DNA from: a virus
Taxonomy: Duplodnaviria > Heunggongvirae > Uroviricota > Caudoviricetes
Direction: 5' to 3' (one strand)
Length of the DNA: 5,842 nucleotides
IMG/VR virus record: IMGVR_UViG_3300012155_000058
Coordinates: 1-5,842 of that record
In this document: piece by piece, positions 273 to 5,499 of the stretch
Position numbering within the stretch: the first letter of the stretch is position 1
Layout: every line of letters begins with the position of its first letter
Program-made: the position numbers and the translations under genes
Notes under the pieces: model-generated
The model's input: only the letters and a program-made list of their open reading frames with translations
Database searches by the model: none
Told to the model about the DNA's origin: nothing

Positions 273-341
273 TATTTATTGAAATATCATTCCCCTAGTT
301 TACTATTTAAACTCGTTTAATTACAAAAAGGAGTTTAATAC

Positions 342-578
342 ATGTACACCTATAAGATGATACAAGTACCGCCCAATATCTCAGTTAAAGCACGTGACAA
401 CAAAGCAGGAATAGCAGCAGCTTACCTTCAAGACGTGGTAAACGAACAAGCCGCCAACGGCTGGGAGTTTCAGCGGATAGACACTATTGGGATTGAAGAA
501 AAGCCAGGGTGTTTCGGTGGCAGCAAGACAAACTTTACTCAGTACTACGTTATCACTTTTAGAAAAGAAGTGGATTAA
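342..578 (+). CDS. Small DUF4177-like protein (78 aa), function unknown
   Basis: ATG at 342 with AAGGAG at 327-332 (9-nt spacer). Protein begins MYTYKMIQVP, has a central NGWEF and ends YYVITFRKE, which matches my recollection of the DUF4177 pattern. Stop TAA 576-578 overlaps the next start. Confidence 0.7.
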   Translation: MYTYKMIQVPPNISVKARDNKAGIAAAYLQDVVNEQAANGWEFQRIDTIGIEEKPGCFGGSKTNFTQYYVITFRKEVD

Positions 579-793
579 TGTTAAAAGTCTTGAGTATTCG
601 CCTTGTGTTGTTCTACCGAGCACATGCGCCAATGAATATTCGTAACAGATGTCGTCACACCCCATCTTGTTCAAAATACACACTGATTGCATTAAAGCGT
701 TTTGGATTCGTAAAGGGGTGGAAACTAGGTTTAAAGCGGATTTATCGTTGCCGTCCACCGAATGGCGGTATTGACTACCCGCCACACAAGTAA
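578..793 (+). CDS. yidD: YidD-family protein (putative membrane protein insertion efficiency factor paralogue, 71 aa)
   Basis: Clear similarity to E. coli YidD recalled from memory: CRHTPSCSKYTLIALKRFGFVKGWKLGLKRIYRCRPPNGGIDYPP versus [46 protein letters not shown]. Start ATG 578-580 overlaps upstream stop (TAATG). Symbol denotes family membership, not orthology to the rnpA-linked yidD. Confidence 0.85.
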   Translation: MLKVLSIRLVLFYRAHAPMNIRNRCRHTPSCSKYTLIALKRFGFVKGWKLGLKRIYRCRPPNGGIDYPPHK

Positions 794-800
794 TGCCTAA

Positions 801-827
801 GGCCGCCATAGTCGACGGCCTTTCTCA
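801..827 (+). terminator. Possible intrinsic terminator of the DUF4177/YidD-like operon
   Basis: AGGCCG (801-806) / CGGCCT (817-822) 6-bp stem with 10-nt loop, 8 nt after the TAA at 791-793; trailing T-tract is weak (TTCTC). Confidence 0.3.
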
Positions 828-3570: not shown

Positions 3571-4436
3571 ATGCAGCCCTTCAAAAACGACAGATCCGCG
3601 CCAGTGAACAGCACGACAGCAGTAAAAATAAAAGAATGGCCGGGCGGGCTACTGGATTCCAGCGCAGACGCCAGTGACGCACCGCCACCGCTTCCCTTCC
3701 AGGACCAGACCTGCGCGGCGGTTTCGTTCAGCTTGTCAAAGTCACCAGCCAGATCAGAAACAGCCTTTTCACGCAGCTTTACCAGTTCCGCCAATGTATC
3801 GACCGGCGCGCGGGTTTTATGTGCGGCCAGCATCGCCATTTCTGACAACAGCAGGCGGCGCGATTCACGGTGATTTTTTTCGATCAGGTCGCCAGACTCC
3901 GGCCACGCCGGATAGGTCAGCGCGCCGGGGCGTTGCATTTTCTGGGATTCCTTGCCAGCGTGAGCGCGGGCGGTGTTCAGTGCCTGCGTAAATCCGGGGG
4001 CGGGCAAGGTGTCACAGACTTTTGTCAGCTTGCTAATGAAGTCCCCAATCTGACCAGCGCAAACAAGTAAACAAACGGCGTCACCGCCTGCGCCCATTCT
4101 CAGATCTGCACCATCGCGCAATTTTTCGGCCAGCCGTTTGACGGCGTTCGGCGGGCTAAGATAAGTGCCGCTTTCTTCCTCCTTACCCGCGCCAAACGTC
4201 CAGTTATGAACGGCGATTTGCTGCCCGTTCGTTGTCAGTTTATCCAGTTCGACGCGCAGATCGGCAACCTGATCCGCCTGCCCCGCCAATTCTGGCTGCG
4301 GCCACTGCGCCCGCGATTCCAGCGCGCGCAATGCGTTAATGCCAGGGGATGACAGCGACGACAACGCACCGTTTAACGTGTCATGCGGCGTTTTCACTTC
4401 ATCCGGCAGTTTTAACTGTCCATTACTCCACGCCAT
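3567..4436 (-). CDS. Gene C: hypothetical protein, ~289 aa, helix-rich composition with a short hydrophobic C-terminal segment
   Basis: ORF in track is 3567-4529, but the best start is ATG 4436-4434 (MAWSNGQLKLPDEV...) preceded by GGGAGCGGGG. This gives a 25-nt overlap with gene B. An alternative ATG 18 nt upstream cannot be excluded. C-terminus FIFTAVVLFTGA is hydrophobic. Confidence 0.7.
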   Translation of the reverse strand: MAWSNGQLKLPDEVKTPHDTLNGALSSLSSPGINALRALESRAQWPQPELAGQADQVADLRVELDKLTTNGQQIAVHNWTFGAGKEEESGTYLSPPNAVKRLAEKLRDGADLRMGAGGDAVCLLVCAGQIGDFISKLTKVCDTLPAPGFTQALNTARAHAGKESQKMQRPGALTYPAWPESGDLIEKNHRESRRLLLSEMAMLAAHKTRAPVDTLAELVKLREKAVSDLAGDFDKLNETAAQVWSWKGSGGGASLASALESSSPPGHSFIFTAVVLFTGADLSFLKGCI

Positions 4437-4900
4437 GAATAACCCCGCTCCCATTCGCTGGAAACCAGCGCGTGTAACTGGCCGGGCGAATAACGCCAGG
4501 CATCCCGTAACTGCATAAATTCGGCACAAAACTCGCTACAAAACCACTTTTCAGGATTCCCACGGCAAAACAGCAAAAAGCCGATAACCCCGGCGATGTC
4601 GTATTTTTTCCCCGCGTACAGGCGGTAAAAACTGGCGATTTCCTGCGGGCTGGCGCTGATTTCGATCAAGTCCCATTTGTCAGAGGGTAAAGGCATTGTT
4701 TTAGCCCTGACCCCGCCATCACGGAACGATGACGAATAGCAGGTAAAATCCGTGCCGACGTCGTAGCACTGCGGCCCCACGGCGATTTCACAATGTGAAT
4801 ACGGACTGCGGGTAACAAGGCGTGTCACCCAGTCCGCCAGGCTGGCTAGTCCGTTGTGATCGCTGCGGCCACGATAAAACGCAATAAACACCGCGTTCAT
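4412..4900 (-). CDS. Gene B: putative permuted papain-like (NlpC/P60 superfamily, YaeF/YiiX C92-like) hydrolase, ~162 aa
   Basis: ATG 4900-4898 overlaps gene A stop (ATGA); a GTG at 4909 is an alternative start. Motif order is a histidine motif PYSHCEIAV followed by a C-terminal cysteine motif KWFCSEFCAEF, resembling the YSH and YCSE motifs of the circularly permuted YaeF/YiiX family. Assignment is by eye and needs profile confirmation. Confidence 0.7.
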   Translation of the reverse strand: MNAVFIAFYRGRSDHNGLASLADWVTRLVTRSPYSHCEIAVGPQCYDVGTDFTCYSSSFRDGGVRAKTMPLPSDKWDLIEISASPQEIASFYRLYAGKKYDIAGVIGFLLFCRGNPEKWFCSEFCAEFMQLRDAWRYSPGQLHALVSSEWERGYSWRGVMDS

Positions 4901-5499
4901 GGTTGCCACCCCAGGGACCAGTCGTAAGCCTCAACGGCGGCAATATCGCCCAGGGCATCCACTGCCGCAATATGCGCCTGCGCAACGGCAAACAAACGCA
5001 TATCGTGTTCAATGGTCACAAACTCAAACTGTGCGGCGATTGCGTTGGTCAGTTCAATCAGCCCGTTATTTTTGGTTTGCCACATCAGACCGGGCGGAAC
5101 CGCGCCCGCCTGTCCCATTTTTGCCAGCGTCATCTGCTGAATGCGGCTGTTAGCGTCGCTATGGAAGCGATTCCCGTCGATCACGATGTAATCGGCGGTG
5201 ACGGCGTCCCTATGTGCTTTTATATCCTGTTCAACCTGCGCTTTAATCTGCTTCAGCGCGGCGGCAAATGCTGCCGCGTCATAAATCCATTTATCACCGT
5301 CCAGGCGATAATATTCGCCCGGTGGCGGCGTTGTTACGAGCTTTCCAGCAGCGGGATTTACCCAGCAATCACGATCGCGGTAACGCCACTGCACATCCGT
5401 TAATTGCATGACCGTTTCAGGCAGAACAATGTCAAACTGATCGGTGTCCAGCCATGCTAGGACCTTCATTGATTCAGAATCAAAATATACATATTTCAT
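4897..5499 (-). CDS. Gene A: hypothetical protein, 200 aa; possibly a tail-fibre assembly or chaperone-like accessory protein by position
   Basis: ATG 5499-5497 lies 3 nt after the stop of the glycine-rich gene, with GGTGA upstream. Position immediately after a fibre-like gene suggests a chaperone role. It lacks the NPEG...RRAD...GKWMFKDG signature of P2/Mu/lambda-type Tfa proteins, so the functional call is weak. Confidence 0.75.
   Translation of the reverse strand: MKYVYFDSESMKVLAWLDTDQFDIVLPETVMQLTDVQWRYRDRDCWVNPAAGKLVTTPPPGEYYRLDGDKWIYDAAAFAAALKQIKAQVEQDIKAHRDAVTADYIVIDGNRFHSDANSRIQQMTLAKMGQAGAVPPGLMWQTKNNGLIELTNAIAAQFEFVTIEHDMRLFAVAQAHIAAVDALGDIAAVEAYDWSLGWQP

Follow-up and report, generated by a model that had tools for sequence, protein, structure and literature searches.

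A short YidD paralogue and a DUF4177-like partner as a probable two-gene accessory cassette at the edge of an HP1/P2-like prophage of Escherichia coli

Two small overlapping genes near one end of a 5,842-nucleotide stretch of viral DNA (the whole of which is called the window here), one for a DUF4177-like protein (ORF1) and one for a short and very basic paralogue of YidD (ORF2), almost certainly constitute a mobile, self-contained accessory cassette (i.e., a prophage moron), as judged from the anatomy of the locus and the identity of its genes. The pairing of ORF1 with this type of YidD is near-obligate across the loci surveyed. We also propose a fuller account, in which this mobile cassette acts through the joint action of its two products at the membrane of lysogens, and we put it forward tentatively, as a possibility that falls short of being probable.

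The window matches the chromosome of E. coli 40EC with 100% identity; bases 1 to ~115 belong to the core gene yeaE and core E. coli homology stops at about positions 113–117. The attL core at positions 90–109 is a 20-bp direct repeat (AAAACAGGGCGTGACGCCCT) that corresponds to the mipA terminator hairpin and has a second exact copy in the int-mipA spacer, and the two copies bracket an HP1/P2-like prophage whose insertion site lies between mipA and yeaE. The prophage reads int…rep…capsid…tail, with int at the far end from the gene pair; the pair itself lies ~230 bp inside attL, between the att site and the tail genes, where it and the late operon converge, and the neighboring tail genes are collinear with orf31–orf35 of Haemophilus phage HP1. 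GC content is 0.31–0.45 over positions 100–1000 compared to 0.53–0.64 in the adjoining tail operon, which bears out the AT-rich islet of the original prediction; what had been called an islet is the edge of the prophage. Horizontal acquisition and a stand-alone YidD gene had been predicted as well, and both are supported by genome comparisons, since the pair lies in an att-bracketed prophage that just 7 of 5426 E. coli genomes carry (the count for the pair is 28 of 5426), and the canonical rpmH-rnpA-yidD-yidC cluster is present elsewhere in the 40EC genome, so that the prophage yidD is a second copy. The pair thus has the features of a prophage moron: it sits inside the prophage borders, its base composition deviates, and most related phages lack it.

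Signals for independent expression were sought around the two genes. A perfect extended -10 promoter-like element (TGnTATAAT; TGTTATAAT) was read from the sequence and found by consensus scan at positions 264–272 on the plus strand, as originally predicted, and a Shine-Dalgarno sequence (AAGGAG, positions 328–333, plus strand) was read 8 nt 5' of the ORF1 start codon. However, the consensus scan also returned alternative -35/-10 promoter-like hexamer pairs at 263–290 and 279–306, and the stretch upstream of the pair, including the promoter-like elements, is unconserved in the related N1420 prophage, so the promoter assignment is plausible but not unique; the final 20 nt 5' of the ORF1 ATG are conserved with N1420. 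ORF1 (positions 342–578) and ORF2 (578–793) are both on the plus strand and are joined by a TAATG overlap, in which the ORF1 stop codon (TAA, 576–578) and the ORF2 start codon (ATG, 578–580) have one base in common, exactly as first described. Directly 3' of yidD, a terminator-like hairpin (GGCCGCCATAGTCGACGGCC, positions 801–826, plus strand) is followed by TTTCTC, and the base changes in the N1420 alignment preserve the stem; as its score is under the terminator-scan threshold, we infer rather than assign a terminator here.

Beyond the pair, positions 794–1180 form a non-coding stretch that is conserved and accompanies the pair and the tail genes (87% identity to N1420; 95–100% to IMG/VR contigs) and includes palindromes at 972–987 and ~1003–1030. 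No Rfam family was matched in positions 1–1400. This stretch could contain the cos site, given synteny with the HP1 order orf34-orf35-cos-attP; since positions 794–1291 do not resemble the HP1 cos junction in sequence, synteny is the one argument for this idea.

The upstream gene, ORF1, encodes a soluble protein of 78 aa that belongs to the HP1 orf3 family and matches the phage protein family phrog_12383 (E 1e-37). Its best and only Pfam match is DUF4177 (PF13783), at 23.6 bits (cut-off 25; E 5.9e-5) and over residues 2–46 only. The original description of this protein as DUF4177-like is thus as far as the match goes. Its close relatives exceed the cut-off in the precomputed Pfam assignment, and many relatives carry a DUF4177 annotation or score (56 of 150 ORF1-family representatives match PF13783 at E<1e-3), but the window ORF1 itself is under the cut-off and its structural matches are marginal, the top ones in BFVD being viral DUF4177 proteins with E ~1e-3 and TM scores of 0.4–0.55. 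A search for a solved structural relative of ORF1 found none. DUF4177 is a domain-of-unknown-function family, so membership gives no mechanism. ORF1 has a predicted beta-alpha-beta-beta fold, two near-invariant motifs (GWEF and PGC, the latter with Cys57), and no transmembrane segment. Its domain is ~50% identical across distant phyla, where it occurs fused to zinc ribbons (frequently) or to GYF/GYF_2 domains and sometimes carries a membrane anchor at its C-terminus, as would fit an activity exerted at the membrane surface. The 150 best family representatives include no natural ORF1-YidD fusion, and 24 of 126 ORF1-family loci are without YidD; these loci, together with the zinc-ribbon and GYF fusions, indicate that ORF1 activity is not intrinsically YidD-dependent.

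The downstream gene, ORF2, encodes 71 aa of the HP1 orf2 family, and its predicted membership in the YidD family was confirmed by scores over both curated cut-offs (PF01809, 66.5 bits, cut-off 27; TIGR00278, 69.8 bits, cut-off 40) and by 39% identity to E. coli YidD (E 2e-14). The YidD core motifs are kept, i.e., C-x5-C-S-x-Y and a third Cys before P-x-GG-x-D-x-P, and the residues C25, C31, S32, Y34, C58, P61, G64, and D66 of ORF2 vary hardly or not at all among 103 partner-type sequences. The His adjacent to the third Cys (“CHP”) is replaced by Arg59 in ORF2, and in an HMM alignment this position is Arg or Lys in 95 of the 103 partner-type YidDs compared to His in 119 of 120 canonical ones, the latter drawn from Enterobacterales only. 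ORF2 further differs from canonical YidD in lacking the N- and C-terminal extensions (the median length is 67 aa for partner-type and 85 aa for canonical YidD), in its location on a prophage, unlinked to rnpA or yidC, and in the DUF4177-like gene ahead of it. These differences in context, length, His, and partner indicate that the NCBI equivalog name “membrane protein insertion efficiency factor YidD” is likely a functional over-annotation for ORF2. The protein is very basic (16 K+R and 1 D+E) and, like canonical YidD, lacks a transmembrane segment; its N-terminal helix has a hydrophobic moment of 0.21 compared to 0.71 in E. coli YidD, so membrane binding by the canonical mode is not assured. 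The YidD family was formerly annotated as a “haemolytic domain”, and E. coli YidD is reportedly (work ascribed to Yu et al. 2011) membrane-associated and non-essential, with a modest reduction in the insertion of YidC-dependent proteins. COG0759 (YidD) has independently been flagged as often horizontally transferred (PMC6287321).

The pair corresponds to orf3-orf2 of phage HP1 (hypothetical proteins NP_043469 and NP_043468, respectively), with 63% and 50% identity, and has thus long been known, though uncharacterized. Escherichia phage P88 has a closer copy (82% and 78% identity), made up of gp53 and an unannotated downstream ORF. The genes in these phages, which belong to the family Peduoviridae, are homologous to ours, in the same order, and have abutting or overlapping stop and start codons. 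Among 50,697 phage records, ORF1 was found in only these two phages, each deposited twice. The HP1 pair lies downstream of PL in the leftward lysogeny operon, between cI-orf4 and orf1-int, whereas here it is on the other side of att, beside the tail genes, and is preceded by a promoter-like sequence of its own. The yidD gene is frameshifted in the P88 record, while 20 E. coli genomes with a P88-like copy have a yidD annotated at that position. P88 also has a hok-like toxin gene adjoining the pair, and no such downstream gene is present in the window.

Having placed the pair among phages, we surveyed the co-occurrence of the two families, as the original prediction had proposed, and found them coupled from both sides. 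The YidD gene begins between 19 nt before and 15 nt after the ORF1 stop at 102 of the 126 loci found through ORF1, and ORF1 lies just upstream at 78 of the 80 viral loci found through partner-type YidD, with one of the two exceptions at a contig edge and the other with swapped gene order. The pairing was seen in four distant lineages and then across several phyla, with stop/start coupling at >100 loci. Hence this is not the only yidD of its genome in a core context, nor did we see the DUF4177-like ORF lost while the yidD-like gene was kept, the two findings that had been named in advance as arguing against an acquired pair. Carriers include P2-like, HP1-like, and lambdoid prophages as well as phage-free chromosomal sites (e.g., in the Yersinia pseudotuberculosis complex), and P2/HP1-like genes were nearby at 36 of 43 paired viral loci versus 4 of 59 paired genome loci. 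The neighbors are heterogeneous (lambdoid tail-tip J, transposases, S24 repressors, and housekeeping genes), and a Pfam scan of 105 immediate neighbors revealed no conserved third gene. A handful of these neighbors are defense genes (Gabija, MADS, or OLD-like), too few to argue from, and enrichment in defense islands was therefore dropped as a line of argument.

Sequence divergence further indicates that both genes are under purifying selection. Compared to strain N1420, pN/pS is 0.013/0.32 for ORF1 and 0.006/0.041 for yidD; relative to distant copies of the pair, pN is 0.1–0.2 and pS is saturated. Such conservation argues that ORF1 and ORF2 are not chance ORFs.

Morons and other small accessory loci are familiar from P2-like phages, with old, tin, and Z/fun of P2 as examples. 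The cassette resembles P2-like morons in its small size, its own promoter-like and terminator-like signals, its deviant composition, its place at the prophage edge beside att, and its absence from most related phages, but it has no sequence relation to known P2 accessory genes. Neither protein matched any PADLOC-DB v2 model, even at E<=1, and our literature search found no paper that functionally links YidD with DUF4177, HP1 orf2/orf3, or prophages.

Based on these observations, we hypothesize that the pair is expressed in the lysogen, as the gene order suggests: the HP1 copy belongs to the cI-int operon, and the copy described here has a promoter-like sequence and is opposed to the late genes. 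Both products would be made in fixed proportion and would form a jointly acting complex on the cytoplasmic side of the inner membrane, where the YidD paralogue may supply the membrane- or YidC-proximal contact. Such a complex might alter YidC/Sec-linked membrane-protein biogenesis or the state of the membrane to the benefit of the element or its host, and the most plausible benefit would be the exclusion of other phages or elements. We regard this mechanistic part as doubtful, though possible. The original prediction had instead suggested membrane insertion of a partner or cargo protein, and this did not stand: having no transmembrane segment, ORF1 is not an insertion substrate, and with no conserved gene among the 105 scanned neighbors the cargo idea was rejected on present evidence. 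A more specific version of our hypothesis, and an improbable one, is a heteromeric complex with a shared thiol/metal centre, in which the near-invariant Cys57 of ORF1 replaces the His missing from the Cys3-His set of canonical YidD, and which modulates YidC/Sec insertion and shields lysogens, for example by blocking the insertion of incoming-phage proteins. The coat proteins of filamentous phages are classic YidC substrates. If this version is true, the cassette would be a new kind of exclusion or defense system and would offer a handle on YidD biochemistry.

Several other explanations were weighed against joint membrane action in lysogens. The pair could be a toxin-antitoxin or addiction module, with the basic YidD paralogue as a membrane-active toxin and ORF1 as its protein antitoxin, that stabilizes the element or triggers abortive infection; we consider this unlikely, yet the arguments for it are several. 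Like type II systems, the cassette comprises two small, overlapping, co-directional genes that are promiscuous on many unrelated mobile elements and islands without fixed neighbors, it persists at phage-free chromosomal sites such as those of the Y. pseudotuberculosis complex, it adjoins a hok-like toxin gene in P88, and one partner is essentially never alone (partner-type YidD is with ORF1 in 78/80 cases, whereas ORF1 relatives are alone in 24/126), an asymmetry as expected of a toxin and its antitoxin. Against this stand the plain beta-alpha-beta-beta fold of ORF1, with no recognizable DNA-binding domain (no HTH, RHH, or AbrB element), the lack of a known toxin fold, and the absence of toxin-antitoxin-related matches to either protein in Pfam, NCBIfam, and PADLOC, the last of which includes many toxin-antitoxin-like defense modules. 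In addition, the putative toxin retains all conserved core residues of the housekeeping family bar one His, and a cross-phylum identity of ~50% with frequent zinc-ribbon or GYF fusions would be unusual for an antitoxin. Selective neutrality, with the pair as decaying or hitch-hiking DNA of no current function, might be suggested by its rarity in E. coli (28/5426 genomes) and the frameshifted yidD in the P88 record, but this reading is hardly credible, being contradicted by the strong purifying selection on both genes, by the stop/start coupling conserved at >100 loci in several phyla, and by the yidD annotated in place in the 20 E. coli genomes with a P88-like copy.

The two other explanations keep a function for the pair and move it to a different stage or target. 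As an aid to the lytic cycle, a phage YidD with its cofactor would boost the insertion of phage membrane proteins (holin, spanin, or those for injection or assembly), either in lytic growth or following infection, in line with the ties of the YidD family to YidC-dependent insertion (through its family names and the reported work of Yu et al. 2011). The pair is indeed conserved in the active phages HP1 and P88, and it adjoins late genes in the 40EC prophage. This explanation nevertheless seems very improbable to us: the host already has a yidD, which is itself non-essential, the HP1 pair shares the lysogenic PL operon with cI and int and is absent from the lytic operons, and the pair described here is convergent with, and compositionally foreign to, the late operon. 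Moreover, with HP1 and P88 as the sole ORF1 carriers in 50,697 phage records, Peduoviridae evidently do not need ORF1, and the pair survives at chromosomal sites without phage genes. Alternatively, the pair may have a cytosolic target (ribosome or nascent chains) or handle redox or metal chemistry through its cysteines, with the YidD fold serving as a small, Cys-rich, basic adaptor. The three near-invariant Cys residues of the YidD paralogue and the one in ORF1, the extreme basic charge of the former, the very strong conservation of the ORF1 domain between phyla (a hint that its target is universal), and its frequent fusion to zinc ribbons would all fit, as would a co-evolution study that tied the YidD domain to ribosomal proteins L34, L36, and L32, a link its authors considered probably spurious (PMC6822775). 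The gene order rpmH-rnpA-yidD offers the simplest explanation for that link, however, and the C-terminal membrane anchors on some ORF1 relatives point to the membrane surface, and we therefore rate a cytosolic role as quite unlikely.

Overall, the analysis delimits a distinct YidD subfamily that is mobile, short, very basic, without the canonical His, and essentially never found without a specific partner, and, for the model phage HP1, two “hypothetical” genes of the lysogeny operon now have an identity that can be tested. YidD is near-universal in bacteria while its biochemical role is poorly defined, and an obligate partner offers an experimental route to both YidD and DUF4177-like folds. 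If the cassette does act in exclusion or defense via membrane-protein insertion, it would represent a new class of mechanism; if it does not, the finding still corrects an automated annotation that names the gene as a housekeeping YidD.

The pair was established to belong to the HP1 orf3-orf2 family and to form a mobile accessory cassette of two genes, coding for a divergent YidD paralogue and an obligate DUF4177-like partner; here its carrier is an HP1/P2-like prophage, which harbours it as a moron at the attL end. The window matched the chromosome of Escherichia coli 40EC at 100% identity, where a ~33-kb prophage is annotated between mipA and yeaE, with an integrase, a C/cox-type switch, a replication endonuclease, ogr, a portal, a terminase, and P2-type capsid and tail genes. 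At bases 1 to ~115 the window covers the 5′ end of yeaE, a core gene, and this part is present in 5426/5426 complete E. coli genomes; the window beyond ~115 was found in only 7 of these 5426. One copy of a 20-bp direct repeat (AAAACAGGGCGTGACGCCCT) lies at 90-109 and the other adjoins the integrase gene, at the opposite prophage end, which places the pair inside the prophage, ~230 bp from attL. The pair and the late tail operon converge, and the tail genes adjoining the pair are collinear with HP1 orf31-orf35: the 1292-2938 product (548 aa) shares 40% identity with HP1 orf35, and the gene after it has a match to Pfam HP1_ORF34. Attachment sites differ between this prophage (mipA terminator) and a related one in E. 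coli N1420 (beside yecA). The original prediction of a horizontally acquired accessory pair was supported, as the pair is prophage-borne, bounded by the 20-bp repeat, and present in few E. coli genomes. Elsewhere in the tail-gene cluster, a 165-aa ORF without a Pfam match (4412-4909, minus strand) matched the N-terminal half of phrog_1128, a family listed as enoyl-CoA hydratase-like in the category "moron, auxiliary metabolic gene and host takeover".

Both genes are on the plus strand, ORF1 (the DUF4177-like gene) at 342-578 (78 aa) and ORF2 (the YidD-family gene) at 578-793 (71 aa), joined by a TAATG overlap in which one base is common to the ORF1 stop TAA and the ORF2 ATG. A perfect extended -10 (TGTTATAAT, 264-272) and a ribosome-binding site (AAGGAG, 328-333), each read from the sequence, precede ORF1, where further promoter-like hexamer pairs overlap, and a GC-rich hairpin followed by TTTCTC (801-826) lies directly 3′ of ORF2. 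GC content is 0.31-0.45 over 100-1000 versus 0.53-0.64 in the adjoining operon. The pair had been described accurately from the outset (coordinates, TAATG, extended -10, and AT-richness). The promoter-bearing region 110-341 is conserved with the N1420 locus (L002, 7590-8020) in its last 20 nt only, so each prophage must drive expression of the pair from an upstream sequence of its own. Downstream of yidD, the non-coding stretch 794-1180 is 87% conserved with the N1420 prophage and 95-100% with IMG/VR contigs, and contains the palindromes GATCACATTCGTGATC (972-987) and CTGAAAAA...TTTTTCAG (~1003-1030). By synteny with HP1 (orf34-orf35-cos-attP), this stretch could contain the phage cos site; comparison with the HP1 cos junction found no similarity, and a search of Rfam gave no family match.

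ORF2 is unambiguously a YidD-family gene (PF01809, 66.5 bits, cut-off 27; TIGR00278, 69.8 bits, cut-off 40). Since a canonical rpmH-rnpA-yidD-yidC cluster adjoining dnaA, the presence of which was one check on the original prediction, is found in the same 40EC genome, the window gene is a second yidD, with 39% identity to the housekeeping one. Its product is very basic (16 K+R, 1 D+E), and no transmembrane segment was found in it. Partner-type YidDs, i.e., those paired with ORF1 (n=103), retain Y13, R22, C25, P29, C31, S32, Y34, G43, R54, C58, P61, G64, and D66; their median length is 67 aa versus 85 aa for canonical YidDs, and the third Cys is followed by Arg/Lys in 95/103 versus by His in 119/120 canonical YidDs (Enterobacterales, a narrow phylogenetic sample). 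The NCBI pipeline names the window gene "membrane protein insertion efficiency factor YidD" via an equivalog model. Family membership is sound, but functional equivalence to canonical YidD is doubtful given the different gene context, the change of one near-invariant residue, the missing termini, and the obligate partner.

The ORF1 product scored just under the Pfam DUF4177 cut-off (23.6 bits, cut-off 25) and gave a very strong match to the phage family phrog_12383 (E 1e-37). The protein is soluble and its beta-alpha-beta-beta fold is confidently predicted (pLDDT 85); DUF4177 proteins were its best, though only marginal, matches in a viral structure library. Near-invariant motifs include YxYKM-Q-PP, AA-YL, GWEF-R-D, and PGC, with Cys57 in 101/103 paired copies. 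An exhaustive profile search returned 926 cluster representatives (E up to 0.001), many of them longer proteins with the ORF1-type domain at the C terminus behind zinc ribbons or GYF_2 domains; in a few relatives the domain is followed by a C-terminal membrane anchor, sometimes a coiled coil plus membrane anchor. A small repeated N-terminal domain also precedes the ORF1-type domain in other phyla (search hits P0072-P0220). No YidD fusion was found among the best 150 family representatives. Identity of the domain across phyla is ~45-60%, which is unusually high for a small non-enzymatic module.

In a translated search of 50,697 phage records, ORF1 turned up only in Escherichia phage P88 (ORF1 82% and YidD 78% identity) and Haemophilus phage HP1 (63% and 50%). 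Judged by sequence, the pair is already known as HP1 orf3 and orf2, both annotated "hypothetical". These lie in the order cI-orf4-orf3-orf2-orf1-int, head to tail, 3′ of the annotated PL promoter, and this layout makes them part of the lysogeny operon; the arrangement recurs in a Rodentibacter prophage. In P88 the pair adjoins int/att and a hok-like gene, and the yidD homologue (L004, 35222-35432) has a frameshift in a T8 run and for that reason carries no annotation; yidD is annotated at the corresponding position in 20 E. coli genomes with a P88-like copy. Overall, 28/5426 complete E. coli genomes contain the pair, each as one chromosomal copy, and a few Klebsiella plasmids carry ORF1 at 58% identity. 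We found no paper on DUF4177-YidD pairing or on a function for HP1 orf2 or orf3; one comparative study lists COG0759 (YidD) among frequently transferred genes, with no reason given there (PMC6287321).

ORF1 and YidD are near-obligate partners, and the cassette they form is autonomous. The co-occurrence survey that the original prediction called for agreed with it from both sides: among 126 loci found via ORF1 (80 species-representative genomes and 46 viral contigs), 102 had a YidD ORF starting -19 to +15 nt from the ORF1 stop, and among 80 viral contig loci found via partner-type YidD, 78 had ORF1 immediately 5′. In Castellaniella, Halomonas, Yersinia, and Rodentibacter, the gene directly 3′ of the ORF1 relative is a YidD gene. 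The 24 exceptions without YidD comprised nearly all members from phyla other than Proteobacteria, along with one Vibrio and three Budvicia copies; the two reverse exceptions were a contig-edge locus and one with swapped order (L219, 3001-3409, YidD first and the ORF1-like gene second). The Budvicia aquatica copies (L027, L030, L031) are in one genome, have SGL in place of PGC and lack the near-invariant Cys, and each is followed by a ~140-aa membrane protein in place of YidD. P2/HP1-like genes lay within 6 kb of 36/43 paired viral loci versus only 4/59 paired genome loci, a test that can miss distant phages because its queries were enterobacterial and HP1 sequences. In the Yersinia pseudotuberculosis complex (L012/L013, 6001-6451; also L018, Y. 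similis), the pair is fixed in the chromosome, flanked by a nemA-like gene and gloA, with both genes intact and no phage genes nearby; yidD starts there at a GTG just 3′ of the ORF1 stop, which gene callers miss, giving a 53-aa product from an internal ATG. In Pseudomonas (L046, L062, L071), the pair is directly 5′ of a lambdoid tail-tip J protein gene, so siphovirus-type prophages carry the cassette too, beyond Peduoviridae.

Both genes are under purifying selection: between 40EC and N1420, pN/pS was 0.013/0.32 for ORF1 and 0.006/0.041 for YidD, and against more distant copies pN was 0.1-0.2 with pS saturated. The ~eight-fold pS gap between the genes in this comparison (342-793 vs L002 8017-8468; ORF1 0.32, YidD 0.04) hints at a recombination breakpoint inside the cassette.

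The tight translational coupling and near-obligate co-occurrence suggest joint action of the two products, probably in a complex. Their likely site of action is the cytoplasmic side of the inner membrane, given the YidD homology, the strongly positive charge, and the membrane anchors that some ORF1 relatives carry. The original prediction had envisaged membrane insertion of a partner or cargo protein; the cargo idea was not borne out, as no third gene was conserved among 105 immediate neighbours, which include lambdoid tail-tip proteins, transposases, S24 repressors, AbiEii-like ATPases, and ordinary metabolic genes. A toxin-antitoxin or addiction module is the chief rival: in its favour, the YidD partner is never found alone, whereas ORF1 relatives are; against it, the pair contains no TA-like domain. 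A helper for membrane proteins of the phage itself is another rival, as is a cytosolic role, either ribosome-linked or redox.

Expression of the cassette in the lysogen is suggested by its position within the cI-int operon of HP1 and, in this prophage, by its separate promoter-like signals and an orientation opposed to the late genes. A few defence genes occur among the neighbours (a strong GajA match, two mad3, one mad8, and OLD/AriA-like and CARF proteins), which is suggestive of variable regions and too sparse to argue from. Given the distribution of the cassette, the most plausible class of function for it is a putative benefit such as the exclusion of other phages.
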